A DNA stretch of 64,000 bases from Candidatus Nealsonbacteria bacterium (lineage in GTDB: Bacteria; Patescibacteriota; Minisyncoccia; Minisyncoccales; JAGMDC01). The stretch's first letter is position 1; the number at the start of each line of letters is the position of its first letter. Shown piece after piece: positions 5,923 through 64,000 of this stretch. The notes beneath the pieces were generated by a model, which saw only the letters and a program-made list of their open reading frames with translations, had not been told where the DNA came from and searched no databases. Location of the stretch: positions 68,032-132,031 of the forward strand of contig JAUWMZ010000001.1 in the NCBI GenBank assembly GCA_030612885.1, written 5' to 3'. The position numbers and the translations under genes are program-made.

Positions 5923-5944
5923 TGATAATTTATCATTAATAATT

Positions 5945-7159: not shown

Positions 7160-7231
7160 TTTCTATTTATATATTTTAACATAATTGCTATTGTCTAACA
7201 ATAAAAAAAATGCTATACTCTTAAAAGAAAT

Positions 7232-44643: not shown

Positions 44644-44703
44644 GAATATTTACGAATTTTAATCACGAATATTCACAAATAAAATATTAGTGAGAATTAA
44701 TGA

Positions 44704-44724
44704 TTCTAATTCGTGAGATTATTA
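44704..44724. repeat. 21-bp direct repeat, left copy (TTCTAATTCGTGAGATTATTA)
   Basis: Identical to 45143-45163. The two copies bracket the GxxExxY gene. Confidence 0.9.
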
Positions 44725-45099: not shown

Positions 45100-45142
45100 T
45101 CAATAAAGATTATTCGTGATAATTAGTGATTGCTTCATTTTG

Positions 45143-45163
45143 TTCTAATTCGTGAGATTATTA
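45143..45163. repeat. 21-bp direct repeat, right copy (TTCTAATTCGTGAGATTATTA)
   Basis: This right copy is identical to the left copy at 44704-44724. Confidence 0.9.
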
Positions 45164-45171
45164 GTGGTGAG

Positions 45172-45588: not shown

Positions 45589-45590
45589 AA

Positions 45591-45992: not shown

Positions 45993-46203
45993 AGAATTTT
46001 ATCAACTTAATTTTATCACATTTTTCATTTTACCACACTTCTATTTTATCACAAATAAAAAATAAAAAAAACAACAGGTGTCAACATCCAACACAAAACA
46101 AAAAATTATCTTTAAAATTATGTATTTGTCCTTTGCGAAAGATTGCTTATAATAAAATTAGCGAAAGCAAGACTATGCCCGTCCTCGTCCAAATTTTCTC
46201 TTT

Positions 46204-46581
46204 ATGCCTTATCGTCATCAACAATTCGTCAATAGAGAAATATATCACATTATCATCAGGGGAATCGATGATAATTTAATCTTTAGGAACGCAGACGATT
46301 ATTATCGAGCTATTTTTTCTATCTATGAATTTAATAATGCTAACGCGGTAGAAATTTATAAAAGGCGCCGTGAAATTCAAACCATAAAAAAACATTTAAA
46401 GAACAAGCCGGGGGAGGCCGGGCCTCCCCCGAGCTTTTCGTTAGGATTTTGGACGCGTATACGCAGAAGATTTGACAAATTTGGTATAGATGCTATAATT
46501 ATGGCAGCACTCTACAATAGAATATATGATAAAGGCTATGCGATGAAAGTGCTGATAGAAAGTAAAAAAAATAGGAGGTGA
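46204..46581 (+). pseudogene. decayed Y1/RAYT-like transposase fragment
   Basis: N-terminus REIYHIIIRGIDDNLIFRNADDYYRAIFSI matches the family start, but no HUH motif follows. Interrupted by GC palindrome CGGGGGAGGCC-G-GGCCTCCCCCG at 46409-46431. Confidence 0.5.
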
Positions 46582-46591
46582 AAAAGAAAAA

Positions 46592-47731: not shown

Positions 47732-47784
47732 ACAAATTCATTGGGGGAGTTATAATTTTTAGCTTCCCGTTTTTTTTATTCTTG

Positions 47785-49935
47785 TTAGAATTTTCTTCCT
47801 CCTACTTTTGGCTCTTTTGGTTTTTTTACTCCTGCTCTTCCTCCTATTTCTTTTTTTTCTTTCTTTGGTTTGATTTCTCTTTCTTCTAAAAACAATTCTT
47901 TTCTATCTTTTTCTAAAATATCTTCTCTATTTACTTCTCGTAGAAGTGTTTGTGTTCTATAATTTTTTGCTTCTGCTCGGGCAGGCGCACTTTCTTCAGC
48001 TTTTATTCTATTTCCGATTGATGAAAATCCAAGAGATTGAGCCCCTGAGCTGTTGAGATAATTAGGAACATTGGGATTGAAACTCTCCGGCTTAAGATAG
48101 TGATCTCTTCCATGCTCTTCAGCAAATGCCTGAAATTCATCAATAAATTCTCTTCCAAAATTTTTGCCCGCTGCTGAGATTTGGCTTCCTGCCCAGAATT
48201 TATGCATTGCCATTTGTGCATCTTTATCATGGATAGTAGATTTATCCATAAGCTCTATGTCTTTGGCACTTAACCCAGCTATTATTGCTTCAGTTGGTGT
48301 TTTAAATCCTGCGGTCGTTATGGCTTCTTTATCAAGCATTAAACCCGCTCTTTCTTTAACATTTTCATCAAATCCCTCTCCTATTTTTTTAGCTAAATAT
48401 GGGTAGGCATCACGAATTTTGGAAAATTCCTTGGGATCAATCTTTAATGCTTGTTTTCCAATTTTTATTACCAGTGATTCTAATTCTTCCTTTTCTAAAC
48501 CTAATTTTTTCATTTCTCTAATTTGTCCTTTTTCTATAGCAGTCTGTAATGTTCCGATGCGGTTTGCTTTGCTAGCTAAAGGATCTCTTATAACATTAAG
48601 ATTGGTTGAAGCAATTCTTCCTGAAGCTTTTTCTCGTGCCCCAGATATATCTTTTTTCTCTGACTCAGTAACAGTGGCAACAGCGCCTGCTCCTTTTCTT
48701 ATTGCCCATCCAGGTACCGCGTATGCTCTCTTACCCCATTTGCTTTTAGGACTATATGCTGATAATCTTTCTGCTCCTCTTAAAACCTTTGCCGGAACTC
48801 TTTCTTTTGCAAAAGTTCCTGCTTTTCTTCCTGCCCATCTTCCTGCTTGTGTGCCTCCGGTTTTCGCGAAGCCAATAATCTTATCTGCGCCCATTGCTCC
48901 GGTTTGTAATGAGGCAAAGAAGCCGACAATAAGAAAAAGAAGTGGTACGGTATATTGGAACAACACAGCAAATCCGCTAAGTCCCCCAGTAGGGTCACTG
49001 GTAAGGTTTCCTTTACTCATTTCTCCTATCAGCATATTTGATAAATAGATAAAGAAAGCAGCGGGAATTCCAATAATGCACCATTGAAAGAATTGTTTCC
49101 ACCACATATCCCAAACGCCTTTTAACGCCGGTAAGATATAACAGAAAAATGCCAAGGGAGACAAAATAATTAAAATCCAAAGAGCAACATACCTTACTGC
49201 AAATAAAAGAGCAAAAAGGAGAAAGATGATTGTTGCAACCAGATTAAAAACCACCAATACTATGCCTGCTCCGAGTCTTTCTCCTGGATCAAGATTTTCG
49301 TTAAACAAAGAACCGATTTGATAAGTCATTGTTTCAATAAAACTTCTGTCTAATGTCCCGGCTGTTAAAAAGTGATTCATTGCTACATTGGAAATATCAA
49401 TAAAAAAACCGCAGATTACCGGGGTGAAATTGATTAAAAGGGCAATGCCGATTAAAAGAGGCAAAAGTTTTTGCGCCTGATATTCTTTTATCCGTAATAT
49501 AGTAGCCAGGGCGACAATCACAAATCCGAGAACAATAAACATATTAGTAAAATCTCGGACTATTCCCCAACCTTCCTGTACGATAAGATTGTCAGGACCA
49601 GTGAAAGATATGTTTATAAAACCAGTACTGGTTACCCAGTTTAATAGGGCATAGGAGAGAACTAAAAAAGGTGTGGTGGCGGTCAACAAAGCTGATATTA
49701 TAAGAGATAAACCGCCGCTAAAGAAGTCCGTTGCTATGCCGGTTAAGCCATGCTGTTCAGGTGAGCCGAGAGGGTTAGTAAAAATTTGAAAAAAATTATC
49801 TATGTAGGTAGACCAAAAACCAGCTTGAGCTGGAACAGTGGGCAAGAACAATCCTAAACCAAAAATAATAAGAAATAACAAGACAATTGTTTTTTTAGAA
49901 AAAAAATGAGAGAATTTTTTAAGTTTTTGAAACAT
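47785..49935 (-). CDS. large polytopic membrane protein, VirB6/TrbL-like candidate channel subunit
   Basis: 716 aa with about 8 hydrophobic spans in the N-terminal half and a Lys/Gly-rich soluble tail. The assignment rests on context and topology only. Confidence 0.45.
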   Translation of the reverse strand: MFQKLKKFSHFFSKKTIVLLFLIIFGLGLFLPTVPAQAGFWSTYIDNFFQIFTNPLGSPEQHGLTGIATDFFSGGLSLIISALLTATTPFLVLSYALLNWVTSTGFINISFTGPDNLIVQEGWGIVRDFTNMFIVLGFVIVALATILRIKEYQAQKLLPLLIGIALLINFTPVICGFFIDISNVAMNHFLTAGTLDRSFIETMTYQIGSLFNENLDPGERLGAGIVLVVFNLVATIIFLLFALLFAVRYVALWILIILSPLAFFCYILPALKGVWDMWWKQFFQWCIIGIPAAFFIYLSNMLIGEMSKGNLTSDPTGGLSGFAVLFQYTVPLLFLIVGFFASLQTGAMGADKIIGFAKTGGTQAGRWAGRKAGTFAKERVPAKVLRGAERLSAYSPKSKWGKRAYAVPGWAIRKGAGAVATVTESEKKDISGAREKASGRIASTNLNVIRDPLASKANRIGTLQTAIEKGQIREMKKLGLEKEELESLVIKIGKQALKIDPKEFSKIRDAYPYLAKKIGEGFDENVKERAGLMLDKEAITTAGFKTPTEAIIAGLSAKDIELMDKSTIHDKDAQMAMHKFWAGSQISAAGKNFGREFIDEFQAFAEEHGRDHYLKPESFNPNVPNYLNSSGAQSLGFSSIGNRIKAEESAPARAEAKNYRTQTLLREVNREDILEKDRKELFLEEREIKPKKEKKEIGGRAGVKKPKEPKVGGRKF

Positions 49936-50209
49936 TAAGTTATTGTAAGAACCTGCCTCGTTAATACTCGGCAGAACCTTGTAATTGTTTCATTTGGTTG
50001 GAATACAAAAATAAGAACCTTTCGTCGCTTCGCTCCTCAAGAACCTTGATTCGTTAAGGTATAATTATATAATCTTGAATTAAATTTTTGCATTCCTCTC
50101 TTCCTTACAATTATAGCATAAAAATAAAGTATATGGATAGGGATAGAGTTGTGGATAAAAAAAACAGAGAGGTGAAAAATCCTCTCCTAATTTTTTTTTG
50201 CATATTTTT

Positions 50210-50524
50210 CTATGCTTTTTTCTTCAGTAATGCCTTTATTTGCAGTATGTCCAGTTTTATTAGTATTAACAGGATGGCAATTGCTGTTATTGCTGCTCCA
50301 AGTATCATTGCTATTCCGTAATTCGGCGTTAAGGGATCTTTATAACCGGCCGGAGGTCCGCTGGGGATTCCTAAACTTTTTGTGAATTCATCTAACTCAT
50401 CTTCGTCCATTTCGGTCCAGTCCTTTGCTGTAACTGAAGTAGTCATCGAAATTAATATCGCTATCATTAACGTAGCCAATATAGTCAAGCCAACTATTTT
50501 TTTCATTCTTCTCATTTCTATCAC
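50210..50524 (-). CDS. small secreted protein with C-terminal membrane anchor
   Basis: The protein has a signal peptide (KKIVGLTILATLMIAILISMTTSVTA) and a C-terminal TM span. Its promoter lies at 50619-50647. Confidence 0.4.
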   Translation of the reverse strand: MIEMRRMKKIVGLTILATLMIAILISMTTSVTAKDWTEMDEDELDEFTKSLGIPSGPPAGYKDPLTPNYGIAMILGAAITAIAILLILIKLDILQIKALLKKKA

Positions 50525-50702: not shown

Positions 50703-51617
50703 TTAGTCCCCTTTAAAGGTTTTTGTCAAATTGAGCCAGTCCTGGATGGTCAGGGTTTCAGCTCGCTGAGATGGTTGAATATTATTTTGAATCAGCCATT
50801 TTTTAATTTTTTCCTTGTCTAATTTCAGTTCTTTGACAAACTCAGGACAAGCTCCTGAAAAATTATTCAAAATCTGTTTTCTGGGATGAGAAAATCCAGC
50901 CTTTACAATCTTGAAGAACAAATCAACGAGTCCGGGTCTCGTTGTTAGTTTTTGAGGTTGAGGAGTTATTTTTATAATTGCGGAGTCAACCTTTGGTTCT
51001 GGCCAAAATGATTTTTTAGAAATGTAGTCAATAATCTTTGCTTGAGCGTAAAATTGAACCGAAACAGCTAAAATACTCATTTTTGGTGGCTTAGCGCCCG
51101 CCTCGCCCGCCGAGCGGGCTCGGCGAGGCGGGCAAATTCTTTGAGCCATTTCTTTCTGAACTATGAGAATCATCTGGCAAGGTCTCATCTGGCGATGTTT
51201 GACATCGCCAGCTTCATCAACAGCCTCAAGAAATTTTCTGATGACTGGCGCAGTTAAATAAAAAGGCAAATTACTAAGTATCTTGTATCTTATATCTCGT
51301 ATTTTGTATTTCAAAATGTCTTCTTGGACGATTTCAATATTTTGAAAATCCTTTAAGGTTTCTTTTAGAATCTCGCACATTTTTATGTCTTTTTCGCAAG
51401 CAATAACTCTTTTTGCTTTTCTTGCTATTTCTTGAGTTAAAGTGCCAATGCCTGGTCCGATTTCCAAAATAGTATCAAAAGGTTTTAAATCAGCTGATTT
51501 GATAACTTTTCTAACTACTGATTTGTCAATCAAAAAATTCTGGCCAAATTTTTTTGATGGTCTAATATTATACTTTTTTAAGATTTCTTTGATTGTTTTT
51601 TTTGATGCCAGATTCAT
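50703..51617 (-). CDS. rsmA: 16S rRNA (adenine1518/1519-N6)-dimethyltransferase RsmA/KsgA
   Basis: KKFGQNFLID, ILEIGPGIGTLT and SNLPFYLT motifs. Longer than usual because of GC-rich palindromic segments read in frame. Confidence 0.9.
   Translation of the reverse strand: MNLASKKTIKEILKKYNIRPSKKFGQNFLIDKSVVRKVIKSADLKPFDTILEIGPGIGTLTQEIARKAKRVIACEKDIKMCEILKETLKDFQNIEIVQEDILKYKIRDIRYKILSNLPFYLTAPVIRKFLEAVDEAGDVKHRQMRPCQMILIVQKEMAQRICPPRRARSAGEAGAKPPKMSILAVSVQFYAQAKIIDYISKKSFWPEPKVDSAIIKITPQPQKLTTRPGLVDLFFKIVKAGFSHPRKQILNNFSGACPEFVKELKLDKEKIKKWLIQNNIQPSQRAETLTIQDWLNLTKTFKGD
51096..51133. repeat. GC-rich nested palindrome inside rsmA
   Basis: GCCCGCCTCGCC (51096-51107) pairs with GGCGAGGCGGGC (51122-51133). 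There is an inner GCCCGC-CGA-GCGGGC hairpin. Read in frame as CPPRRARSAGEAG. Confidence 0.85.
51189..51211. repeat. 9-bp-arm palindrome inside rsmA (CTGGCGATG-TTTGA-CATCGCCAG)
   Basis: Perfect arms. Read in frame as AGDVKHRQ within a segment that is longer than in the E. coli KsgA sequence as I recall it. Confidence 0.8.
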
Positions 51618-52760: not shown

Positions 52761-54287
52761 TCAGTTTTCTTTTATTCTATACATCAGAGCTTCGGAAAGA
52801 TGGTCAAAAGAGATACTTTCTGACTGGTCTAAATCAGCAATAGTTCGGCTGACTTTGAGAGTGCGATGAAATCCGCGGGCAGAAAGTTTGCCGGAATCAA
52901 CATATTTTTTCAATAATGCCTGGGATTTCAAGTCAATTTGGCAGAATTTCTTAATTTCAGGAATTGACATTTCAGAATTAGTCAAACTCAACGAGAACCG
53001 TTCTCGCCCGCTCAAATTTTGCTTTGCAAAACTTAGGCGGGCTCGTTGAATTTGACGGGCTTTGATCACTTTTTCTCTTATTTCAGAACTGGAATTTTTT
53101 TCATCTTCAGCCACTAGCCTCTCATATTTCAGTTGAGGAACTTCAATAAAAAGGTCAATTCTGTCCATTAAAGGTCCGGATAGTTTTCTTCTATATTTAC
53201 TAATTTGAGAAGGGGTACAGGTACATTGTCTTTCCGGGTCTCCATAATAACCGCAGGGGCAAGGGTTAGAAGCAGCAACTAAGGTAAAGCGGGCTGGCAA
53301 GGTTAAGCGGTTTTTCGCCCGGAGAATGGTAATTTCCCCTTCTTCAATCGGCTGGCGTAAAGATTCTAAAACATCTCTGTGAAATTCTGGAAATTCATCT
53401 AAAAATAAAATGCCTCTGTGAGCTAAAGTGATTTCTCCGGGTCTGGGAGGATTGCCTCCGCCAATCAGGGCTGGTTCAGATGAAGCATGATGAGGCGAGC
53501 GAAAAGGCCTTAATTTAATTAAAGCCGTTCCCAAAGGCAGAAGTCCGCTGATGCTGTAAATTTTAGTGACTTCCAGGGATTCTTCAAAAGAAAGAGGGGG
53601 CAGGATAGAAGGAATGGCTTTGGCTAAAAGTGTTTTTCCAGCGCCAGGCGGTCCCAACATCAAAAGATGATGGCTGCCAGCAGCAGCAATTTCCAATGCC
53701 CTTTTAGCGTATCCCTGCCCTTTAATCCAGGCAAGGTCAACAGAATAGTTCTGTTCCTCCAAAAATTTTTCCTTGTCTGTTTGAAAAGAAGAAATCATTT
53801 TCTTTCCTTCCAAGTAATCAATGACTTCTTTTAAGGTTTCTACTCCGATTATTTTTATTGCTTCTGGCTTGGCATCAGAGGCATCATCTTCTTTAATTAA
53901 GTTTATTAAACCTGCCTCTGAAGCATTAGCTTTTGGCAGGATTATTTCTTTTAATCCGTTTTTCTTAGCTGCCAATACCAAGGAAAGAGTTCCTTTTATT
54001 GGTCTTAGCTTCCCGTCTAAAGCTAATTCTCCAACAAAAATTTTATTCCGAGCATCAAATCTTACTTGCTCAGAGGCAGATAAAAAAGCTAAAGCAATAG
54101 GCAGGTCGTATAAAGAACCTTCTTTTTTTAAATCAGCCGGAGCTAAATTTACTAAAACCCGAATGGGCTGGCTAAAAGGAGATTTAAATTTAGAACTGTT
54201 TATTGCTGAACCAACTCTTTCTTTTGACTCTTCAACCGCTTTGTCAGGCAGGCCGACGATATTAAGGGAGGCGATAATACCCCATCT
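52761..54287 (-). pseudogene. comM: comM (YifB-family Mg-chelatase-like competence ATPase), 5'-truncated by insertion
   Basis: Frame is open from 54287. Hand translation gives ...SLNIVGLPDKAVEESKERVGSAINSSKFKSPFSQPIRVLVNLAPADLKKEGSLYDLPIALAFL..., then GPPGAGKTL and ILFLDEFPEF. No start codon and no first 25-30 codons are present. A recombinase gene abuts it. Confidence 0.8.
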
Positions 54288-55840
54288 TCAATAGGAAACA
54301 TCTGCACTAATCGTTGATTATCTACTGGGACATATCCAGTTATCCACGCTTCACCCTTGCGTGAATCAAGTATTATTTTGTCAAGGATACAATTTAGAAA
54401 TTGTTGTTTTTGTTCAGGAGTTATAGATTCTAACCGTTGCATAACTAAACGAGAAAAATGTTTGACAGCCTCAATAAACATAGGTTTGCTAACTGCTTGT
54501 GTTAATTTACTTTCATTCTCTTTTATTTTATCTTCCAGTTCCTTTTCTATCTGAGTAAGTTCACTGATTTTCTTTAGAAATAATTCTTTAGGTATATTCC
54601 CCTCTGTATAAAGTTCTAATAGTTTATCTTTTTTATAATCTATTTTTTCTTTTTCTCTGGACCAATCTTTTTCCTCTTTTTCTAATAACTTTTGATTTTC
54701 AATAACTTTTTTAGTTAAAAGTGAAATACCACTAATAAGTATTTTAGGATTTTTTACTGCGTTGCTGACAGCAGTCCATACGCTATTATCTAACTGATTA
54801 ACCCTTACCATCTTTGCATTACAATCTTTAGGAAAGGGGAATTTTTTATGACGATTGTTGCATCTGTAATACTGATGACTTCTGACAGTCTCGCCTGTAA
54901 AACTTGACCCACACAATTTACATTTTATAAGTCCACTTAGTAAATAGAAATGTTTTCTGTCAGCATACGGCTTATAATTTTTTGATAATAGTTTCTGAAC
55001 AAATCTAAATTTCTCTTTAGATATTATAACAGGAAATTTAATAGGAATCCATTCGCTCCTATCTCTTTTTCTCCTTCCAGTTTTTATTGTTCTTTTATAT
55101 TTTTTTCCATTTTCAGTTTCCACGCTATAATTTTTACAATAATAACCTGTTCCAACACAAGACTCATTTCTTAAAATCCTTCCTACTACACTATTGTTCC
55201 ATTTTATTCCTCCTTTTCTAGGTTTAATACCCTTCAATGTTAATTCTTTAACAACCCTGCTCAAACTCTGAAATTTAATATAAAAGTCAAACATTAAAAT
55301 TACAATTTCTGCTTCTTTCTTGTTAATTTTATAATAACCCTCTTTTTCTGGAGTTTTTTTAATATAATCATAGCCAAATGGAGGAGTGCTTCCTACGATT
55401 CCTTTTTGTTTCGCCTTAAAAATTCTCCCCCTTCTGGTCCTTTCTAAAATCCTTTCTTTTTCGTATTCTGCTGTGGCACCAAGCACATTAAACATAAATC
55501 TTCCTTCTGGAGTGTCAGAGATTGGTTTATCACCTATAAAGATTTCTATGTTTGCTTTTTTAAACTCTTCAACTATAATCCCCTGCTGATAAAGGTTTCT
55601 GGATAACCGGTCCACCGAATGAACATATACGGCTTCAAATAAACCCTTTTTAACATCTCTCCTTAAACAATCTAAAGATGGTCTATCTAAACTCTCTCCA
55701 GAGTAGCCGTTATCTAAATATTCCTCAACAATTTCAAAATTCTTGCAGATTTCTCTTAATTCTGCTATTTGCGATTTAATTGTCTTTTGTTCTTCCTGTT
55801 TCTCGGTAGAAACACGACAATATAATGCTACTTTTTTCAT
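54200..55840 (-). CDS. large serine recombinase (integrase)
   Basis: The catalytic region reads VALYCRVSTEKQ and VHSVDRLSRN. A recombinase domain follows, then a zinc ribbon (CKLCGSSFTGE...YYRCNN) and a coiled coil. Confidence 0.9.
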   Translation of the reverse strand: MKKVALYCRVSTEKQEEQKTIKSQIAELREICKNFEIVEEYLDNGYSGESLDRPSLDCLRRDVKKGLFEAVYVHSVDRLSRNLYQQGIIVEEFKKANIEIFIGDKPISDTPEGRFMFNVLGATAEYEKERILERTRRGRIFKAKQKGIVGSTPPFGYDYIKKTPEKEGYYKINKKEAEIVILMFDFYIKFQSLSRVVKELTLKGIKPRKGGIKWNNSVVGRILRNESCVGTGYYCKNYSVETENGKKYKRTIKTGRRKRDRSEWIPIKFPVIISKEKFRFVQKLLSKNYKPYADRKHFYLLSGLIKCKLCGSSFTGETVRSHQYYRCNNRHKKFPFPKDCNAKMVRVNQLDNSVWTAVSNAVKNPKILISGISLLTKKVIENQKLLEKEEKDWSREKEKIDYKKDKLLELYTEGNIPKELFLKKISELTQIEKELEDKIKENESKLTQAVSKPMFIEAVKHFSRLVMQRLESITPEQKQQFLNCILDKIILDSRKGEAWITGYVPVDNQRLVQMFPIEDGVLSPPLISSACLTKRLKSQKKELVQQ

Positions 55841-55918
55841 AGTTTTTCTAATTTAAGACCCCGCTAAGCTGTTGGGCTGTGCGGGGTCATAAAATAAATA
55901 CCCAACAGCTTTAATTTT

Positions 55919-55946
55919 AGAATAATCAATTATAAAACAATGTCAA
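55919..55946 (-). promoter_or_regulatory. sigma70-type promoter of the recombinase gene (TTGACA-N16-TATTCT)
   Basis: Reverse complement of tgtcaa at 55941-55946 and agaata at 55919-55924. The leader contains interleaved hairpin arms at 55857-55910. Confidence 0.5.
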
Positions 55947-55972
55947 GGTGCTTATCTAAAATAAGCGTTTTT

Positions 55973-56095
55973 CTTACACCTCCTACACTTTACTATTTTT
56001 TGAGTTCAAATAAGCGGTGTAAGTCTTCAATGTAAGGGTTTAGGGGTGTAAGTATGGTCTTACACCATCAAACTCTTACACTGACGACTTACACT
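55973..56095. repeat. iteron-like array of the heptamer GTGTAAG/CTTACAC (at least 7 copies, both orientations)
   Basis: CTTACAC at 55973, 56059, 56075 and 56089. GTGTAAG at 56017 and 56046. TGTAAG at 56031. One inverted pair, GTGTAAG-N6-CTTACAC, spans 56046-56065. Confidence 0.8.
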
Positions 56096-56096
56096 C

Positions 56097-57533
56097 CTAT
56101 TTGATAGGATTTTGTTCGGTATTTTGTTGATTTTCAGGTGTTAGTGTAGGAAGTGTAGGAGATTCTGGAGTTTTGAAGTAGATATTATTTATTTTTACTA
56201 CCTCCTGTTTTTTAAATAAATAACGAACACCATCTTTGCCTCTTGGTTTTTTCTCAGCAGAAAGATTTAGTTTTTTGATTACCCGACCAATTTTTGATGC
56301 TCTCTGGCGAGAATTATCTTTGACTAAAAATAATCCATCGGGCATTCTTTGACTAATACATTTTGGAGACAGAATTATTTCCATTTTTTCGTTAAATTGG
56401 TTTAAGATACATCTTATTACACTTTCTTCAAATTCAGATGGCTCCCATTCTGAAAATCCATAAAGTGCTTTAAATCTTTTTTTGACATTTCTAATTTCAT
56501 TTTCTTTGCCACAAATCTTTAAAACAACCTGAAGAGGCAACCATAATTCCAGCTCCCTGCCTACCATAGTCTTTTTTTCTTTGTATTCTCTTTTACCTTG
56601 CTCATAAAAGAGCTTAACTAAATGAAAGTTATCAATTTGGATTTGATAAATTTTCCCTCTTTTTTCTTTCCATTTTTCGCTTTCTTCACCTGGTTCGTCA
56701 AAATTTTTTCCGCTTTTAAATAAAGGAATTACAATACATCTATCAATTAAATCTTCAGGCAATTCTCCTACCGAAGCGAAAGCTTTAGGACTGTAGGTCT
56801 CAAATTCTAAAATTTCTCTTCCCTTATTTTTGTCAAAATTTATAATTCTTCTTTTGCCCCCGCTTTTTTTATATGAGTCAGTAAAAATATCTAGGAGTTC
56901 TTCACTTTCTTTTCTTTTAAGTGATTCCGCTTGGTCCATTATGTAGGTTGCCCGTAGTGAATCCGCAGTATCACCTAAAGATGCCAAACTGGGTCTAGCT
57001 TTTATAGCATTAAAACAAACCTGTTTTAGAAAACTTAACAACTGGCTTTTTCCTGAACCCTTAGGACCTTTAACAAATAAAAAGGGATAAGCAGAAAAAA
57101 TTGGAAAAAAATATGTGCCCAGAATCCACGCTGTAATTAACAGATAATCATCTTCATTTTTTAATTCGGTATATTTTTTTAACAGTTCTTTAATTCCATC
57201 AAATACTTCCCTTGCTTTTTTTAATGTAATTATTCCTCTTGTTTGGCAGGATTTTATAAATTCATTCACTTCATTTATCCCCCACCTTTCCTCTATATGT
57301 GCAAGTTTTCTTCCCCGTTTTTCTATGTAGTATTCTTCTCCTTGATATTTAATAGTATCATCTCTGAAAATCTCTGGTATTTCACCCTCTTTCACAATTA
57401 AAAAAAAGTTTTCTTCTTCCTTATTTTTTGAGATAAACCGAAATCCCAGAATCAAAATATCGTTTTTAATATCTAATGAAGGGTGAAGAAACATACCTTC
57501 AAATCCTTCAATTTTATTTGTTTGATTTTCCAT
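56097..57533 (-). CDS. P-loop NTPase, candidate element replication/primase-helicase-like protein
   Basis: The 478-aa protein has Walker A VKGPKGSGKSQ and a Walker-B-like TYIMDQAE. Its function is inferred from mobile-element context only. Confidence 0.45.
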   Translation of the reverse strand: MENQTNKIEGFEGMFLHPSLDIKNDILILGFRFISKNKEEENFFLIVKEGEIPEIFRDDTIKYQGEEYYIEKRGRKLAHIEERWGINEVNEFIKSCQTRGIITLKKAREVFDGIKELLKKYTELKNEDDYLLITAWILGTYFFPIFSAYPFLFVKGPKGSGKSQLLSFLKQVCFNAIKARPSLASLGDTADSLRATYIMDQAESLKRKESEELLDIFTDSYKKSGGKRRIINFDKNKGREILEFETYSPKAFASVGELPEDLIDRCIVIPLFKSGKNFDEPGEESEKWKEKRGKIYQIQIDNFHLVKLFYEQGKREYKEKKTMVGRELELWLPLQVVLKICGKENEIRNVKKRFKALYGFSEWEPSEFEESVIRCILNQFNEKMEIILSPKCISQRMPDGLFLVKDNSRQRASKIGRVIKKLNLSAEKKPRGKDGVRYLFKKQEVVKINNIYFKTPESPTLPTLTPENQQNTEQNPIK

Positions 57534-57747
57534 TTTTTTTAATCTCCTTTGGTTTTAATTTCTCAAAATACTCTAAAATTTCTTTTGAGGAAATTAAAGT
57601 CTCAAAAGCTTTAAATAAGTGAAACTCCCCATCGTGTGTTGGATTGAAATTAAGATAAATTTTAAGATTTTCATCTTTCTTTTGATACATACTTCTTTTA
57701 ATCAAAAATCCGCTATTCGCTTGGCAGGCTCCACCATTTTTTGGCAC
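57514..57747 (-). CDS. small hypothetical protein
   Basis: 77-aa ORF overlapping the start of the P-loop gene. The real start is possibly the internal Met (MYQKKDENL). Confidence 0.3.
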   Translation of the reverse strand: MPKNGGACQANSGFLIKRSMYQKKDENLKIYLNFNPTHDGEFHLFKAFETLISSKEILEYFEKLKPKEIKKNGKSNK

Positions 57748-58032
57748 CCGCCCAGCGGATAACGGACTTGGGACTTATGGTGGAAATTGTGCCAGCGTTG
57801 GAAAATAAAAAATGGAAGTATTTTTACTCCCATTTTTCTTTAATTTCTAAAGAAAAAAGGGCTAAAAAATAAAAAACAAAAAATCTAAACAGAAATACTA
57901 ACGCTTCCTATTTATTTATGTGTTTTTTATTCTTTAGCCCTTTGTAGAAACTTACATCGGACTAAGGTCTTTTGCGACCTTTTACAAAAGACCTTTAAAA
58001 AAATGTATTTTTTTTATAACGAACTCAATTTT

Positions 58033-58060
58033 AGTTTAGCAAATAATAAAGATATGTCAA
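58033..58060 (-). promoter_or_regulatory. sigma70-type promoter (TTGACA-N16-TAAACT)
   Basis: Reverse complement of tgtcaa at 58055-58060 and agttta at 58033-58038. Faces the 57747/57533 genes. Confidence 0.45.
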
Positions 58061-58073
58061 GCCCTCCCCTTTT

Positions 58074-58253
58074 TTAGGTTCTACATTTTTTCAAAAAATC
58101 AATCAAACCTTTCTCTGAAATACGATAGGCTTTACGGCTTATCTTTACTGCTTTTAGCTTACCCGATTCTATTAAGCGATAAATAGTCCGCTCACTAACT
58201 CTTAACTTTTCAGATACCTCTTTTACAGTAAAAAAGTGATTTACTTTATCCAT
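58074..58253 (-). CDS. excisionase-family HTH DNA-binding protein (candidate recombination directionality factor or regulator)
   Basis: Hand-translated 59 aa: MDKVNHFFTVKEVSEKLRVSERTIYRLIESGKLKAVKISRKAYRISEKGLIDFLKKCRT. Not in the ORF track because it is under 60 aa. Confidence 0.7.
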   Translation of the reverse strand: MDKVNHFFTVKEVSEKLRVSERTIYRLIESGKLKAVKISRKAYRISEKGLIDFLKKCRT

Positions 58254-58454
58254 TATCTTATAATAAAGTTTTCTTGATAAATGTCAAATTAGTCGTATGG
58301 CAAAATAGTTGTCTATTGACAAATCTTTTAGGAGCCATAGAATGAAGATGTTAGGAATAGAGGTTTAGAGAAGTTTTTTAGTTTGGTATAATTATAAAGG
58401 AGTTAGAAACCGCTATTCCTAACAAATAGCTTCTCTTTCTAACTCCTTTTTTGT

Positions 58455-59393
58455 ATGAAAATAAAGATGAAAAATTATATTGTCTATCAAAGAGTTTCCA
58501 CTAAAGAGCAAGCAAAGGAAGGGATTTCATTAGAGGCAATGTTTAATTCCTGTATTAGGTATATCAAAAACCAAGACAATGGAAGATTAGTTAAGGTTTA
58601 TGAAGATGGAGGAATTTCAGGAGGTAGTATTAGTAAAAGACCAGCATTAAAAGAGTTGATAAAAGACATTGAGACGCAACGCTTATCCATTGATATAGTT
58701 TTAGTTTGGAATTTAGATAGGTTGAGTAGGAGCCGTAAGGACCTAGATTTCCTAAAGGATTTTTTTGACAAAAAGAAGATAGAACTCTATTCTGTTTCCG
58801 ATGGAAAGATTGACACTTCAACTGCTTCTGGAAATCTTACTTTCGGCATAAAGGGAGTTGTCTCACAATATTATCGTGATGATATTGCAGAAAAAACTCA
58901 TAACGCTTTATACAATAAAGCAACTAATGGAGAATTTAACGGGGGAATGCCTCCTTTTGGTTATTTACTTAATGAGAAAAATAAATATGTAATTGATGGA
59001 GAAAAATCCGAAATTATAAAATATATTTATCAAAGATTTCTTAAATTAAAATCCTTTTGTAAATTAGCGAAGGAATTAAGTGAAAAAGGAAAATTGTCTC
59101 CAAAAGGAAGAAAGTGGTCCGATGTTCAGATAAAAAGAATTCTAACTCATCCCGTTTATAGAGGGGCTTATTCTTGGAATAGGACCGGAAAAAGAAAAAT
59201 AAATGAAGAGAATTTGATTATAAGAGAAAATTCTCATCCAGCAATTATTAGTAAAGAATTATGGGATAAGGTCCAAAAAATCATCTCTTCTAAAAGTTCA
59301 ACTAAAATACAAAAACAAGAAAAGGATTATATTGTAGAAACCCCGTTATTTACCGATGGAAATAGGAATAGAGAATTAAAATATAAAATTTAA
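58455..59393 (+). CDS. serine recombinase, short form (resolvase + recombinase domains, no zinc ribbon/coiled coil)
   Basis: IVYQRVSTKEQ, VWNLDRLSRS, and a recombinase domain (PPFGY...HPVYRG...HPAIISKELW). Ends where large serine recombinases normally continue. Confidence 0.85.
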   Translation: MKIKMKNYIVYQRVSTKEQAKEGISLEAMFNSCIRYIKNQDNGRLVKVYEDGGISGGSISKRPALKELIKDIETQRLSIDIVLVWNLDRLSRSRKDLDFLKDFFDKKKIELYSVSDGKIDTSTASGNLTFGIKGVVSQYYRDDIAEKTHNALYNKATNGEFNGGMPPFGYLLNEKNKYVIDGEKSEIIKYIYQRFLKLKSFCKLAKELSEKGKLSPKGRKWSDVQIKRILTHPVYRGAYSWNRTGKRKINEENLIIRENSHPAIISKELWDKVQKIISSKSSTKIQKQEKDYIVETPLFTDGNRNRELKYKI

Positions 59394-59453
59394 TATTTAC
59401 TTTCTTTTCCAGTGGGGCTATTATTAAGTTAGAACAATTAAATATTCAAATTG

Positions 59454-59598
59454 CCTAAGTCCTTGTTTTAGGATATGGCATAAAAACCCGTCTAAGGTAT
59501 CAAGCTCCTCGTCAGAGCACCTTAGACGGGTTATATCCCGAAAGGGGTATAGGTAGCGAAAGCTATCGCTGGCGGGGAGCTTTGTATTTTCAACCAGC
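59454..59598 (+). ncRNA. candidate structured RNA with 11-nt GAAA-tetraloop receptor and two GAAA hairpins (unknown class)
   Basis: Receptor CCTAAG (59454-59459) / TATGG (59474-59478) around a UCCU-UGUUUU-AGGA cap. 12-bp hairpin 59487-59498/59519-59530. GAAA-capped hairpins 59532-59551 and 59552-59567. Loop AAGCTCC (59502-59508) is complementary to GGAGCTT (59576-59582). GCTGG/CCAGC pair at 59568-59598. Confidence 0.55.
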
Positions 59599-59621
59599 GA
59601 ATAAGACATCAATAAAAAATT

Positions 59622-60080
59622 ATGTTAGAAGAATTAAAAATAGGAATTAAAGAATTTTTATCTCCCAAAGTTTCTATAAAGAGAATAATAAGAGATACTA
59701 TAAAATACGGCATTACTCTTTTGATTTTATTTGGACTAGGATGGGCAATCGGTTTTTTATTGAGTGCTATTTTGGGATTACTTTTTATGTTCTCTTTTGA
59801 CCGAATTTGTAAATATAAATGGAAACAAATATTCCAAGAGAAGAAAAAGAGAACAATCCTATTAGTTATTTCTTTTATTATAGTAATTTTGGTAATAGAT
59901 ATGATTGATTATCAACATCAAAAAAATCAAGAGATTAGAGATTTTTGCACAAAAGCGTATATTATACAAGGAAGAGACAGAATTAAGTTTTTTAATTCAG
60001 TAAATGAATGTATAGATATTGTAAAAAGAGCAGGAGGAATAAAGGGCTTTCAACAGCTTTTAAAAGAAAGTTATAAGTGA
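59622..60080 (+). CDS. membrane protein of unknown function
   Basis: This 152-aa protein has three hydrophobic spans, and the structured RNA candidate lies immediately upstream. Confidence 0.45.
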   Translation: MLEELKIGIKEFLSPKVSIKRIIRDTIKYGITLLILFGLGWAIGFLLSAILGLLFMFSFDRICKYKWKQIFQEKKKRTILLVISFIIVILVIDMIDYQHQKNQEIRDFCTKAYIIQGRDRIKFFNSVNECIDIVKRAGGIKGFQQLLKESYK

Positions 60081-60120
60081 AGTTATAAAAAAATAACAAA
60101 CGAAGTAGTTAATAATAATT

Positions 60121-61353
60121 ATGCATAAGCAACAATCTAATGAGAAAGGGATTTCTGGATTACAAATATTGGTAATTTTTTGTTTTTTATTTTTATTGTT
60201 TTTGATTTTCTCTCCATCAAAAACTCCTGAAGAATATCCTGGAAGTCAACAAGAGCAACAACAAGTTATAAAATATACAGCGGTCAGTCTTAATTTTCGC
60301 TCAGTTGATAATATCAATAAAGTCCTTCGTGTCCTTGATAAAGGAACTCCAGTTATAATAGTTGAAGAAGGAGGAAAATGGACTTTAGTAGAAGTAGATG
60401 AACAACAAGGTTATGTAGCAACAAGATATTTAGCATCTGAAAAGATTGTGGAAGAAGAAAAAGAAGTGGTTTATTCTCCTCCACCAACAAATTCAAGAGT
60501 TGAGGAATTAGAACAGAAAGTTGAGGAATTAGAGAAAAAACAACAAGAAGCTCAAGAAAAGATGAAGAAAGAAAAAGAAGAATTGGAAAGACAAACTCAA
60601 GCACTTAAAGAACAATTACAACAACAACCTCAAGGAATTTATAAAACTTCAGAACTTGTAGAAGGATTAAGTGAATTGATAGTCGCAATAGGTTGTTTTG
60701 ATTATTCTGGAGACATTATGACTGGTTCAGGAGTTGTAATTGGTAAGGGTAAAGCATTGAGTTCTGATAGAGTAAGCACTGCGATTTTAACTAATTATCA
60801 CATTATCAAGAATGCTGATATGACGCTTGAGCATCCTTGTGCGGTAGGATACTCTCCTAACCCCACTAAAGGGCTTACTGATTTTTATTTTGCTAACCCA
60901 GTTTATTATCCTAGTATAATATCTGACTCTGAAATGGAATTGATAGATTTTTACTTTCTTAGCATAGAAGAAAAACTTAGAATACCTGAATACGGAGATA
61001 TTGAAATAATTCCTAATGCTTCTTTAGAGATTACCGAATATGTCCCTATTATTTGTGAAGAAGATAAAATAAAGGTAGGAGAAGAAATGATTGTTCTCGG
61101 TTATCCTTCTATCGGAGGAGATTATTTAACTGCCACAGAGGGAATAATTAGCGGATACGAAGGAAAGCATTACCTTACTACCTCAGCAAAAATAGAACAT
61201 GGAAATTCTGGAGGAGGTGCGTTTCTGAAATCATCTGGCTGCCTTACTGGAATGCCTACCTTTGTAAGGTTAGGTGAGATGGAAAGTTTTGCTCGGTTAA
61301 TAAATATGCCTGTGCTTGCACGAGATTATCTTTCAAAAATTTGGGATTACTAA
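60121..61353 (+). CDS. SH3b domain / coiled coil / trypsin-like serine protease
   Basis: Signal anchor, an SH3-like segment (LNFRSVDNINKVLRVLDKGTPVIIVEEGGKWTLVEV), a Q/E/K coiled coil, and a protease core with HGNSGGGAF. Confidence 0.7.
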   Translation: MHKQQSNEKGISGLQILVIFCFLFLLFLIFSPSKTPEEYPGSQQEQQQVIKYTAVSLNFRSVDNINKVLRVLDKGTPVIIVEEGGKWTLVEVDEQQGYVATRYLASEKIVEEEKEVVYSPPPTNSRVEELEQKVEELEKKQQEAQEKMKKEKEELERQTQALKEQLQQQPQGIYKTSELVEGLSELIVAIGCFDYSGDIMTGSGVVIGKGKALSSDRVSTAILTNYHIIKNADMTLEHPCAVGYSPNPTKGLTDFYFANPVYYPSIISDSEMELIDFYFLSIEEKLRIPEYGDIEIIPNASLEITEYVPIICEEDKIKVGEEMIVLGYPSIGGDYLTATEGIISGYEGKHYLTTSAKIEHGNSGGGAFLKSSGCLTGMPTFVRLGEMESFARLINMPVLARDYLSKIWDY

Positions 61354-61379
61354 ACTAAAAAGAAATGATTATTCTTTCT

Positions 61380-61850
61380 TTAATTAGCTAATTTAACTTC
61401 CTTTTTGCTTTGTTCAATCCTTAATTTTGCTTTTCTTAATTCCTCTTCTTCCTCTTTAGACAAAGATAACTCAAGGGTTTGCTTCTCAATCACTTCCCTT
61501 CCTTCTGTGGCTTTAATTTTATCCATCATTGTGGCTACAATATTTGAAGCTCCTTGCGGACTAGCTTTATGTTTTTTTAATCCTTTAATAACTTCCTCTT
61601 GCCCTAAACGAATAATTCTCCAGGCATTTTCAACGAATTCCTTTTGTCTCCATTTTCTTAATTTATTAAACTCATCAGGACTTATTGCTTTTTGATATTC
61701 AATAATGTCCTTAATATCTTGAACATTTATTTTTCTTTGTTTAGAAATCTCTTCCTCTGAAAAACCAACCATCCAATCAGTTAGGACATCTTCACGGGTT
61801 TTTATTCTAAAAATACTTCCCCTTCCAAATTTTTTACTTGGTCTTGGCAT
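61380..61850 (-). CDS. hypothetical protein (basic N-terminus, coiled-coil C-terminus)
   Basis: The ORF is 156 aa and no diagnostic motif was recognised. Confidence 0.35.
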   Translation of the reverse strand: MPRPSKKFGRGSIFRIKTREDVLTDWMVGFSEEEISKQRKINVQDIKDIIEYQKAISPDEFNKLRKWRQKEFVENAWRIIRLGQEEVIKGLKKHKASPQGASNIVATMMDKIKATEGREVIEKQTLELSLSKEEEEELRKAKLRIEQSKKEVKLAN

Positions 61851-62824
61851 AGAAATAAAAAATCCAAACCCGAACTATCAGATTTGGACTACTGACTTTA
61901 AAATTAAATCTTTAAAGTTATTTAAATGAAAAATTTTTCTCACGCATTTACCTCCTTTAGTTAAAAATTAAAACATTTGCTCTTTAATTATTACTGATTT
62001 TCTTTATTTATAGAGCTTATTATTTTATTATCATTGAAATAAAAGAAAGAGTCAACCTCTAAACTCTTATTTATGAATCTGAGAGATAGAGAAGGGAGAG
62101 AGGTATTAACTCATCACAGGTCCTCTATTAAAAAATACCATTTTCACACTTGCTCCCGATTAAAAATGACAAGATTAGCGTTTTTATACTTAAAATTGCT
62201 TAAAAAGGGAGCAATTTTTATTAGATTGGTCCACTTTATCCAACTAACGAGTTCTCGGTTGTTGGAGAAATACTTAAAATTATCTTATTTTTTATCTTTT
62301 TCGTATGTTTTTTATGAATCTGGGGGAAGGAAGGCAGGAGAATAATGCATTTTCAAACCCTAAACTTTTTTATTTTTAATTGTTTTATCATAAAAAATCT
62401 GTTTAAAAATAGTTTTTAATATATCAATACATAAAATAAAAAGATAGATTAAAACATAAGAAATAGACAAAAATAGATTTTTTTTATACTATTTTTAATT
62501 TAGTAAAAAAGCGATTAAAGTTAATAAGTTATATTTTGTTAAGGAATTTTAAAATACTCTTTTTATGTTTAAAAGAATGAAAAATCAATGAAAAACAGCA
62601 ATCGCCTATTGAAAAAGATATATCCATTTGATATGCTAAAGATAATAAAGATGCATCAAAATTACCTAAAAAGCTTAAAACTGTTTTAAAACTGTTTTTG
62701 AACTCCTTTTTATCGTCTCCGGTCCTGGACCGGGAATGTCAAAGGAGATTAAACCCCATTAAAGGGTAAGGAATTATGACTAAAAAACAAAAAAGGTCGG
62801 CTAATTTTTAAGTATTGAAAATTT

Positions 62825-63238
62825 ATGAACATATTAAATTTTATAAAATCTAACAAAAAAGAAATAGTAATCGCTTTTAGTTTCTTAATAGTGGGGATAA
62901 TTATTTCTCCTACTCCTGTAGAAATTGTAGAAAAACCAGTAATAAAAGAAGTAAAGAAAATAGAGTATTCTGAAACTTGTGAAAAGATACAAATAGAAAA
63001 TGGGAAACTGAAAAGACAAAATAATATTCAAAGACAAGTTATGGATTTAGATGATGAAATCATTTATTTAGGTAGTCAAGGAATGGGATATTGCTCTCAA
63101 ATGCTTGTTGCGGCTTCAGAATTTGATTACAATAAGTTAAATTATTTAACAGATAAAGTAGAATTATTAACCCCCCAGATGTCAGAGGCAGGAAATAAAA
63201 AACTCAAATTATTAGAGCAATTAGAAAATATAAAATAA
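62825..63238 (+). CDS. hypothetical single-pass membrane protein
   Basis: The 137-aa ORF has an N-terminal TM span (VIAFSFLIVGIIISP). Confidence 0.35.
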   Translation: MNILNFIKSNKKEIVIAFSFLIVGIIISPTPVEIVEKPVIKEVKKIEYSETCEKIQIENGKLKRQNNIQRQVMDLDDEIIYLGSQGMGYCSQMLVAASEFDYNKLNYLTDKVELLTPQMSEAGNKKLKLLEQLENIK

Positions 63239-63341
63239 AAATAAGGAGGGTGATGATATGATAGTTATACTAATGAAGCTAATTTCAACGAATAAGCTTT
63301 TTTAGGATAGAGGGTCGGCTTCCTCGTCTTAAAGAGAAAAA

Positions 63342-63752
63342 ATGAGAATTGATTTTGACAAATTAACAAAAGGAGTTTTAGTATTTTCACTTTTATTGAT
63401 AGCTTTTTCTATTTGCTATTACTATGTTATTTTTTTACCCCAAAAAGAAGGAGCGAGATTAGAGCAACAAAGACAAGAACAGTTAGCAAAAGAGGAACGA
63501 GAACGGCAGGCATTAGAACAAGAACATAAGGAGTATGTAGGTAAAAGAAAAAAAGATTGTTATAGCATATACGAAAAAGAAAGAGATAAATGGAATAATG
63601 TAGATGAGGGCTGGTATGATGAGGAGAAAGATGTTTGTAAAGTTAGATATACAACTGATAAATATAAAGGGGTGGATTGTGGGAAAGAATATGAGGGGCT
63701 ACCAAGTTTAATGTTGGAGTGCATGATGGGAGTATTCATAAAAGAGTATTAA
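63342..63752 (+). CDS. hypothetical single-pass membrane protein with coiled coil and Cys-containing C-terminal domain
   Basis: The 136-aa ORF has an N-terminal TM span (VLVFSLLLIAFSICYYYVIFL). Confidence 0.35.
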   Translation: MRIDFDKLTKGVLVFSLLLIAFSICYYYVIFLPQKEGARLEQQRQEQLAKEERERQALEQEHKEYVGKRKKDCYSIYEKERDKWNNVDEGWYDEEKDVCKVRYTTDKYKGVDCGKEYEGLPSLMLECMMGVFIKEY

Positions 63753-63765
63753 ATCATCAATAACA

Positions 63766-64000
63766 ATGGAAAACAAACTTTGGCATACAAATAAACTAAT
63801 CTGTGGTGATAATTTAGGAGAATTAACTAAACTTCCTAAAGAAAGCGTAGATTTAATTTATATTGACCCTCCATTTTTTACTCATAGGCAATATGAGGTA
63901 ATTTGGGGAGATGAGGCAGAAGTTAGAAGTTTTGAAGATAGATGGGAGGGTGGAATAGAACATTACATTAGTTGGCTAAAACCGAGAGTGCAAGCAATGT
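63766..64000 (+). CDS. DNA N4/N6 methyltransferase (partial, runs off the window)
   Basis: Hand translation gives MENKLWHTNKLICGDNLGELTKLPKESVDLIYIDPPFF..., containing a DPPF/Y-type motif. The ORF is still open at position 64000. Confidence 0.8.
   Translation, partial: MENKLWHTNKLICGDNLGELTKLPKESVDLIYIDPPFFTHRQYEVIWGDEAEVRSFEDRWEGGIEHYISWLKPRVQAM

Follow-up and report, generated by a model that had tools for sequence, protein, structure and literature searches.

A putative 13.1-kb integrative element splitting comM in a Candidatus Nealsonbacteria bacterium and the predicted tail swap of its large serine recombinase

A 64,000-nucleotide stretch of DNA from Candidatus Nealsonbacteria bacterium (NCBI GenBank assembly GCA_030612885.1, contig JAUWMZ010000001.1, positions 68,032 to 132,031 of the forward strand; the whole stretch is referred to below as the window and numbered from its first letter) was compared with related sequences and extended beyond its right-hand edge. 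It contains an incomplete comM gene and, adjoining it, a gene for a large serine recombinase (LSR). These are judged, with good but not complete confidence, to belong to a 13.1-kb non-phage, non-conjugative integrative element of a Parcubacteria (candidate phyla radiation, CPR) bacterium, which was inserted in comM by its own LSR and exchanges the C-terminal tail of this enzyme on integration. As far as can be read from sequence comparison, the insertion separates the promoter, the start codon and the first 32 codons of comM from the rest of the gene and thereby disrupts it. The alignments likewise place the attachment site of the element (attP) inside the 3′ end of the LSR gene, where integration cuts between a linker and a terminal strand of the protein; the piece coding for the strand is parked at the far end of the integrated element, and excision in silico rejoins the native tail.

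The split comM gene and the insertion boundaries

The features that define the insertion are as follows.
52761–54260, minus strand: comM (YifB/Mg-chelatase-like AAA+ helicase), codons 33–531 and stop codon; assigned by Pfam and by identity to the intact homologue P0001.
54238–54287, minus strand: attL, hybrid site P^B′ (a caret marks a junction here and below), core TTAATA at 54260–54265; assigned by three-way alignment.
54200–55840, minus strand (read 55840 to 54200): LSR, 546 aa in the integrated form; Resolvase, Recombinase and Zn_ribbon_recom domains (Pfam).
~67400–67497 in window-equivalent numbering: attR, orphan LSR tail codons (NYGQCPNNLLRFELEVKI and stop codon) and comM codons 1–32; taken from the sequence of contig L001.

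On the minus strand the comM frame is open from 54287 to a stop codon at 52761 and lacks a start codon, as had been stated in a preliminary description of the window. Pfam matches along this frame follow one another in the order ChlI (E=1e-38), Mg_chelatase (E=1e-92) and Mg_chelatase_C (E=3e-28), and the resident 3′ part is 94% identical to the intact 531-aa protein P0001 of a Candidatus Parcubacteria relative, which is named YifB family Mg chelatase-like AAA ATPase by NCBI. Two details of the preliminary description had to be changed. The missing part, given there as 25–30 codons, comprises the first 32 codons when judged against 119 full-length homologues, and the junction, placed there at 54287, was moved by a three-site alignment to the core TTAATA at 54260–54265. 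The real comM-derived DNA is 52761–54260, and the stretch of frame up to 54287 consists of nine chance codons within the element. The possibility that a gene starting at about 54287 is the normal form of comM was checked and discarded, full-length ComM being the norm among the homologues.

Contigs continuing past position 64000 were found by exact-protein look-up of the last complete open reading frame (ORF) of the window. One of them, L001, overlaps the window with 100% identity over 1976 nt (L001 position + 61915 = window position). The comM 5′ fragment that had been expected beyond the edge (32 codons, MPSKVLSSAIVDLDAQIIEVEVDVSFGLRSFN) was located at L001 5582–5487 on the minus strand, after which the sequence leaves comM; in window-equivalent numbering it lies at ~67402–67497, 13.1 kb off, and other assemblies place both comM parts on one contig. 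When this fragment was joined in silico to the sequence downstream of 54260, the product read ...GLRSFN-IVGLPD... and was colinear with P0001. The element thus delimited is ~13,141 bp long (window 54262 to window-equivalent 67403), with a GC content of ~0.30 compared with 0.36–0.47 for comM.

An uninterrupted allele, which had also been sought, is present in the 94%-identical relative: comM is intact in its element-free locus (L005), and the genes around it are those of the interrupted locus, in the same order: PNPase, zf-dskA and proteins of 694 aa and 372 aa in one direction, LysM-M23 and KsgA in the other. The interrupted gene is itself undamaged, with 499 open codons and no stops or frameshifts; compared with the relative, the 499-codon part has a ratio of nonsynonymous to synonymous substitution rates (dN/dS) of 0.11, below the 0.18–0.31 of neighbouring genes. 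By these measures the comM pieces give no sign of pseudogene decay.

Both junctions are supported by independent assemblies, each being covered by ENA and NCBI contigs, and a single 41.5-kb Logan contig (L011) covers the complete element together with attL, attR and the genes on its flanks. Extra junctions at 62025 and 56344 in contigs of ERZ4220366 were judged to be assembly chimeras (3–6x coverage, one end coding for an rpoB-like peptide); the chimeric contig ends are L013 5705–5827 and L001 1–109.

The sites attB (L005), attR (L001) and attL share only the sequence TTAATA, and their flanks fit a simple insertion; long direct repeats were not found at the junctions, TTAATA alone being common to the sites. 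The insertion point lies between codons 32 and 33 of comM, within the conserved coding sequence ...RSFN^IVGLPD.... To locate the centre of the crossover, the site was brought into register with attP sites of relatives, which are strongly palindromic; from this we infer a central dinucleotide AA at 54262–54263 (minus strand) inside the shared core. The reconstructed junctions after excision read ...GGGGTATTATCGCCTCCCTTAAT^AAACTACGGACAATGTCCCAAC... for attP and ...GGCCTCCGCTCTTTTAAT^ATCGTCGGCCTGCC... for the repaired attB. This arrangement is that expected of integration by attP × attB exchange at the central AA within TTAATA, performed by the LSR of the element.

Two features of the chromosomal neighbourhood were recorded alongside. 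Genes resembling those of a type IV secretion system (T4SS) flank the comM neighbourhood at ~44200–50500 (L009 15906–21641) and include TrbL_3, PrgI, TraC-like and P-loop TraG-like ATPase genes; they are assigned to the chromosome rather than to the element because they lie outside the att sites and are also present in the element-free relative. A PDDEXK_3 gene among them is found here and is missing from the relative. The KsgA/RsmA methyltransferase gene (window 50703–51617, minus strand, 304 aa; L005 12820–13662, 280 aa) is, at 78% identity, far more diverged than its neighbours and contains an inserted low-complexity stretch (...RRARSAGEAGAKPPK...).

The recombinase tail and its clade

The identification of the protein next to comM as a 546-aa LSR was confirmed by its Pfam domains (PF00239, E=6.7e-34; PF07508; PF13408) and by a match to PHROG 95 ‘integrase’ (E=4e-110). 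The enzyme was aligned with 32 homologues of 40–60% identity, and the C-termini of 120 homologues were then listed. The catalytic R9 and S11 are among the residues invariant in the 33 sequences, together with R53, R78 and R81, as are the zinc-ribbon residues C307, C310, C327 and C340. AlphaFold2 (AF2) models of the LSR and a homologue contain long helices at 347–472, and a Foldseek search with the model of an LSR homologue gave the SPbeta, phiC31, Bxb1 and A118 integrases as the best PDB matches (E down to 6e-23).

The stop codon of the LSR gene sits 60 nt into comM. The preliminary description had the tail read out of frame from comM, which holds, and put its length at about 25 codons, which does not: the last 19 codons and the stop codon (54259–54200) are comM sequence in another frame, and the integrated protein ends ...GVLSPPLI-SSACLTKRLKSQKKELVQQ. 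The out-of-frame residues correspond to comM codons 33–52 in the +2 frame; in a tail compatibility test 22/22 positions matched from comM codon 31 (codons 31–53), compared with ≤8 for shuffles. In the excised form, read from an ORF at 5429–5515 of L001, the end becomes ...GVLSPPLI-NYGQCPNNLLRFELEVKI. The prediction that excision would alter the C-terminus is thus borne out by this ORF and by the alignment, the change being from SSACLTKRLKSQKKELVQQ to NYGQCPNNLLRFELEVKI.

About half of the 120 homologues end in the sequence ...G-x-L-S...G-Q-C/Y-P/S-N-N-x-L-K-F-E-L-E-V-K-I/V followed by a stop codon, which is the excised-form tail. The remaining homologues have short, unrelated endings directly after the G-x-L-S segment; the host-derived tails in intact integrated LSR genes range from 2 to 20 aa. 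An AF2 model of the native-tail homologue P0122, built from an alignment of 53 sequences, has a disordered linker at 515–534 followed by a β-strand at 536–544 (predicted local distance difference test, pLDDT, ~88); in the model of the integrated-form LSR of the window the pLDDT is <50 throughout 515–546.

Comparison of the homologues indicates that the terminal strand L-K/R-F-E-L-E-V-K-I, encoded by the last nine codons, is conserved at the protein level. It is also conceivable that the tail is conserved as DNA only, as part of attP or as a terminator, and that the swap is without consequence for the enzyme. Part of the ‘protein motif’ is indeed the att site, since the linker motifs (G-x-L-S ... 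G-Q-C-P) owe their G-T and C-P residues to the inverted-repeat arms of attP (in L175, GGGACAC, a 28-nt spacer and GTGTCCC), the linker between the motifs is predicted to be disordered, and tails of 2–20 aa from the host are tolerated in intact integrated genes. The strand itself behaves otherwise. The half-site of a serine integrase is usually ~25 bp long; the LKFELEVKI codons are 32–55 nt from the crossover and therefore lie outside it. Among homologues these codons vary synonymously at many places, and the encoded residues are conserved (F539 is at least 90% conserved in the 53 tail-bearing sequences), the strand is modelled with confidence, and the reading frame and stop position of the tail are kept among homologues of 40–60% identity. 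Conservation as DNA only is accordingly considered rather unlikely.

The attP sites of relatives, where they lie within native-tail LSR genes, are strong imperfect palindromes (L175, 17/24; L181, 19/24). Close relatives of the LSR were drawn from per-protein contig look-ups, and the loci examined fell into two groups according to the ending of the protein. All six loci with an unrelated ending (the window, L176/L177, L178/L179, L095, L019 and L328) adjoin a comM 3′ fragment; the LSR gene is directly upstream of the fragment and reads into it, and in the CPR loci the LysM-M23/KsgA synteny follows. The insertion positions are as follows.
Window LSR: comM codon 32/33, FN^IVGLPD.
P0141 (L178/L179): comM HNLLM, just before the Walker A motif, ~codon 230.
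L019 LSR (39% identical, gammaproteobacterial metagenome-assembled genome, MAG): comM ~codon 230, the same region as P0141.
P0125 (L176/L177) and L095: comM DVLE^SLRQP, ~codon 330.
P0183 (L328): comM ~codon 362–383.

The unrelated tails of further homologues back-translate to comM in the same +2 frame, at ~codons 215–235, 234–250, 313–330 and 362. In all, loci confirm four insertion positions in comM, and protein tails point to a fifth. The far end of the L176 element carries a parked tail in the LSR frame (...NYLKFELEVKV and stop codon); this element likewise has attP inside the LSR gene and acquires a new C-terminus on integration. An internal attP is thus indicated across the clade by the alignments. 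At all six native-tail loci (L175, L180, L181, L015, L022 and L096) comM is not within reach. Gene-by-gene inspection of three of these showed the LSR to be flanked on either side by cargo: L175 has NACHT and Panacea, L180 has AbiV and restriction-modification genes, and L181 has RelA_SpoT and a ParA-like ATPase. The clade appears to be dedicated to comM. It is nearly absent from IMG/VR, where only distant LSR relatives were found (best 39% identity).

The element in L019, a MAG of uncultured Gammaproteobacteria, is ~6.4 kb long (LSR at 5001–6524, comM pieces at 12–104 and 6554–7426), and its far end encodes a tail-like ...SIEFRLVKK.... This 39%-identical LSR thus occupies comM, close to Walker A, in an organism that is not a CPR member, and the comM-targeting design crosses phyla. 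Among the matches listed, further close LSR relatives come from MAGs assigned to archaea, Omnitrophota, Aminicenantes and Nitrospiraceae. In L176 a second, diverged copy of comM codons 1–44 was seen at 2601–2732 (plus strand), 1.1 kb upstream of comM at 3859; it has 86% DNA identity to the resident 5′ end and stops after ...VQES. It could be the scar of another element at another comM position, or of one with a replacement 5′ end.

The locus of the native-tail homologue P0128 (L175) contains three direct modules of ~85 nt, each made up of attP and tail codons, at 11558–11641, 15514–15597 and 19976–20059 (plus strand). One is the 3′ end of the LSR gene itself; the other two are orphans, which delimit one cassette with Panacea/HTH and one with NACHT. 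In the orphans L/I-x-F-Q-L-E-V-x-V and a stop codon can still be translated, with synonymous differences in the codons. The arrangement suggests gain and loss of cassettes at the recombinase’s own att site.

A wider interpretation is put forward tentatively and is, in our view, well short of an even chance: that the LSR is a sensor of the integration state (complete when free, lacking the strand when integrated), that ‘attP plus tail’ is a portable cassette boundary and that the clade is a comM-dedicated toolkit. As a sensor, the enzyme would differ between its two forms in directionality, stability or site choice and constitute a reversible covalent switch, for which the Mx8 tyrosine integrase is the only demonstrated case. 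With cassettes, the recombinase would gain and shed them while always regaining its tail, an integron-like use of a serine integrase. As a toolkit, the clade would offer several orthogonal attP/attB pairs within one conserved gene.

Cargo and accessory modules

The genes between the LSR and attR comprise the following.
56097–57533, minus strand: P-loop NTPase, 478 aa; assigned from the domain fusions of relatives.
57514–57747, minus strand: small ORF of 77 aa (58 aa as called in L009/L011) between the HTH_17 and P-loop genes; no family match.
58074–58253, minus strand: HTH_17 (excisionase/MerR-like, helix-turn-helix) protein, 59 aa; PF12728, E=9e-16, and PHROG excisionase families.
58260–58343: divergent promoter-like hexamers between the HTH_17 block and the second recombinase; two back-to-back sigma-70-like 11/12 matches.
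58455–59393, plus strand: second serine recombinase, 312 aa; PF00239 and PF07508 only, no zinc ribbon or coiled coil.
59452–59567, plus strand: LOOT RNA (Rfam RF03000); 91.8 bits against a gathering score of 46.4, model positions 1–121 of 121.
59622–60080, plus strand: 152-aa protein; no family match, hydrophobic stretches in the translation.
60121–61353, plus strand: SH3 and trypsin-like serine protease, 410 aa, with coiled-coil linker; Trypsin_2 and SH3_3.
61380–63752: a 156-aa protein (minus strand) and 137-aa and 136-aa proteins (plus strand); no family matches.
From 63766 past the window edge, plus strand: N6_N4 DNA methyltransferase fused to an Mrr-type nuclease domain, 416 aa; PADLOC MTase_II, E=9e-77.

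Every item of the cargo named in the preliminary description (a P-loop protein, an HTH protein, a second recombinase, a protease and a methyltransferase) was recovered with coordinates and domains. Beyond the window the methyltransferase–Mrr gene is followed by ORFs of 126 aa and 147 aa, a 178-aa Panacea (SocA) protein and its 150-aa partner. All ORFs of the element are intact, 16 lying between attL and attR. Among these 16, capsid, portal, terminase, tail and lysis genes were not found by Pfam (PHROGs gave only integrase, invertase and excisionase), nor were relaxase, coupling-protein or mating-pair genes. By gene content the element is neither a prophage nor an integrative conjugative element.

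No direct Pfam or NCBIfam match was obtained for the 478-aa P-loop protein, and PADLOC and PHROGs gave single weak or uninformative matches. It has 7390 relatives, many of which form the C-terminal half of proteins of 800–980 aa with DnaG Zn-ribbon/Toprim, Prim-Pol, PriCT_2 or RepB_primase domains at the N-terminus. Related comM elements have a DnaG zinc-ribbon gene and a gene of 456–472 aa in the same place before the LSR; the 472-aa gene of L178 codes for a distant P-loop homologue (BLASTP), and the one in L328 is its counterpart by position and size. The protein is probably a primase-associated, replication helicase-like module of the element. From the primase fusions of its relatives and the DnaG zinc-ribbon genes of related elements it follows that the element probably replicates when free.

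The LSR gene closes a minus-strand gene block of which the HTH_17 gene is the first member; in L178 and L181 an HTH_17 gene is directly upstream of the LSR. The promoter-like hexamers ahead of this block are consensus matches only (10 found, 7.5 expected).

The second recombinase had been described as lacking the zinc-ribbon/coiled-coil part; the part is absent, and the loss implied by that wording is not supported. Its 11 closest homologues are all 277–308 aa long with the same two domains, which marks it as a member of a naturally short family and not a truncated integrase. One homologue (L256–L258) is found in an element with its own tyrosine integrase and a primase, and five related LSR elements (L176, L178, L328, L180 and L181) are without it. 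As a naturally short protein that is absent from related comM elements, it probably does not belong to the machinery for integration. It is located 2.6 kb from the LSR and divergently oriented. Inverted repeats marking an invertible segment were not found within the element, the only matches being AT-rich chance ones.

LOOT, a structured RNA, lies downstream of the short recombinase gene and ahead of the genes for the putative membrane protein and the protease. The related comM element L178 has another copy at 3458–3579 (minus strand, 77 bits), just upstream of a giant S8 peptidase gene. Both copies stand ahead of protease genes. LOOT could be a leader, or a small RNA, that is characteristic of such CPR elements. 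A pattern scan of IMG/VR for LOOT returned 69 matches, about the chance estimate for a 15-base pattern, of which 0 passed a fuller motif. An RNA-guided recombinase made up of the short recombinase and LOOT was considered and rejected: the homologue loci L256 and L258 are without LOOT, and L178 has LOOT without the recombinase.

The 152-aa protein downstream is probably membrane-associated, to judge from its translation, and the 410-aa protease gave weak HtrA/DegP-type matches. Mid-element, at 61851–62824, there is a stretch of ~1 kb that is AT-rich (GC 0.24–0.29) and without a convincing ORF, where several low-coverage assemblies break; it could be a replication origin or regulatory region.

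Alternatives, significance and related systems

The helicase ComM promotes the recombination of transforming DNA, and its gene is often hit by mobile elements with defence systems (PMC11472951). By analogy, the element would disable ComM-dependent recombination of transforming DNA, and the disruption would protect the element and its restriction-modification-like and toxin-antitoxin-like cargo from transformation-mediated deletion. The tail swap would yield two LSR isoforms differing in activity, stability or directionality; the HTH_17 protein may work with the LSR in excision, and the short second recombinase may resolve multimers of the replicating form.

Several points weigh against the reading of a mobile element with a functional tail swap. 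The mobility of this copy is unproven and its excision was performed in silico only: the excised circle, the repaired comM and a native-tail version of the exact LSR were found in none of the assemblies or the protein collection, the relevant protein clusters have a single member each, and an exact-match search of IMG/VR for the attP junction gave 0 matches. The reconstructed attP of the element has weak dyad symmetry (11–12/24). The terminal strand may be dispensable for the enzyme. At the native-tail loci, cargo on both sides of the LSR is what would be expected of an unintegrated element, a state read from context only; a check of these contigs for circularity found no terminal repeats. Gene context alone makes the HTH_17 protein a candidate directionality factor or regulator, and it is again from gene context alone that the second recombinase is probably a resolvase-type accessory enzyme, with multimer resolution the most economical role. 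The role of ComM in CPR bacteria is extrapolated from other phyla. The reversible coupling of competence to excision that had been proposed for this locus is purely inferential, neither an excised circle nor a repaired comM having turned up in the available data.

The same observations could be explained by a fixed, decaying remnant that was inserted once and is now immobile, comM being a pseudogene in the lineage. Excised and repaired forms would then be missing from every assembly and protein cluster, as they are, and the loss of the conserved terminal strand from the integrated LSR could have inactivated it. The state of the locus speaks otherwise: all element ORFs are intact, including that of the 546-aa LSR, both comM parts are open (dN/dS 0.11), at attR the parked tail codons are undamaged and could be rejoined in frame, the 94%-identical relative is without the element and in five other lineages, too, the integrated LSR is a full-length ORF. 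A remnant is therefore thought improbable.

Still less probability is given to a regulatory switch at comM in the style of Listeria comK, with a prophage or phage satellite whose transient excision would allow the host to express the gene. LSR insertion in a competence gene, exact restoration of this gene on excision and an excisionase-like HTH protein would all suit such a switch, and the sr1WO serine recombinases of phage WO integrate in the magnesium chelatase gene of Wolbachia (PMC9203015). None of the 16 ORFs is a capsid, portal, terminase, tail or lysis gene, the LSR clade is nearly absent from IMG/VR, and evidence for excision was found in neither assemblies, clusters nor IMG/VR. That the two serine recombinases work only as a pair, in the manner of CcrA/CcrB from staphylococcal cassette chromosomes, is most unlikely: the best NCBIfam matches of both are the CcrB, CcrC and CcrA models, far below cut-offs, while the second recombinase has no zinc ribbon or coiled coil, lies 2.6 kb away in divergent orientation, is absent from five related LSR elements and has homologues in elements with a tyrosine integrase.

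On the preferred reading, of an LSR-inserted integrative element with a tail swap, this is a fully delimited and apparently intact element that strikes the recombination step of transformation, in a group of bacteria with tiny genomes that are thought to depend heavily on DNA uptake and in which very few mobile elements have been characterized. It extends the conflict of mobile elements versus transformation to a new part of the tree. The clade supplies related serine integrases with differing, precisely inferable attP/attB pairs in one gene, which is useful for studies of the evolution of specificity and for genome engineering, and LOOT RNA gains a reproducible genomic context. If the tail swap does alter the behaviour of the enzyme, it would represent a new, self-contained control of serine-integrase directionality.

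Gene-splitting elements with serine integrases include the Listeria comK prophages of the A118/phi10403S type and the Bacillus skin and SPbeta elements. In these, as here, LSR insertion interrupts a competence or developmental gene that precise excision restores; they differ in being prophages or their remnants with demonstrated, regulated excision, whereas excision of the present element was reconstructed in silico only. To our knowledge, the integrase gene of these systems does not span attP. The A118 integrase has been described (PMC3556126). The sr1WO system of phage WO shares with the element an LSR, a target gene of the Mg-chelatase family, gene pieces flanking the insertion and an attP reconstructed in the same way; phage WO is, however, a tailed phage of an alphaproteobacterial endosymbiont, whereas this is a small, non-phage element of a CPR bacterium. 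The Tn7-like AbaR/AbGRI islands of Acinetobacter baumannii, and further elements with defence genes found in comM of this species, are comM-specific, lower transformation and often carry defence cargo (PMC11472951). The proposed benefit, protection from deletion by transformation, is the same; those elements enter the Mg-chelatase domain by Tn7-like transposition, whereas the LSR clade uses site-specific serine recombination at several sites along the gene.

Integration-dependent immunity in the mycobacteriophages BPs and Brujita and the integrase partition of the SSV1 type, known from archaeal viruses, use tyrosine recombinases. There too attP is in a coding region of the element, and integration alters a C-terminus or splits a gene; the altered gene is the repressor in BPs and Brujita, and in SSV1 the integrase is split in two large parts. 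A literature search gave no report of a serine integrase that spans attP and swaps its tail, and none of integrative elements with serine recombinases in Patescibacteria or of an LSR clade dedicated to comM, absences that are in both cases weak evidence; we know of no serine-integrase precedent for the tail swap. The closest precedent is Myxococcus phage Mx8, in which attP lies inside the gene for the tyrosine integrase (IntP/IntX) and integration gives this gene a new 3′ end (Tojo 1996, Magrini 1999, in PMC6070905), so that the free and prophage states encode enzymes with different C-termini. Mx8 employs a tyrosine recombinase and a target other than comM, whereas here an LSR exchanges a short conserved terminal strand; the resemblance is one of mechanism, not of family.

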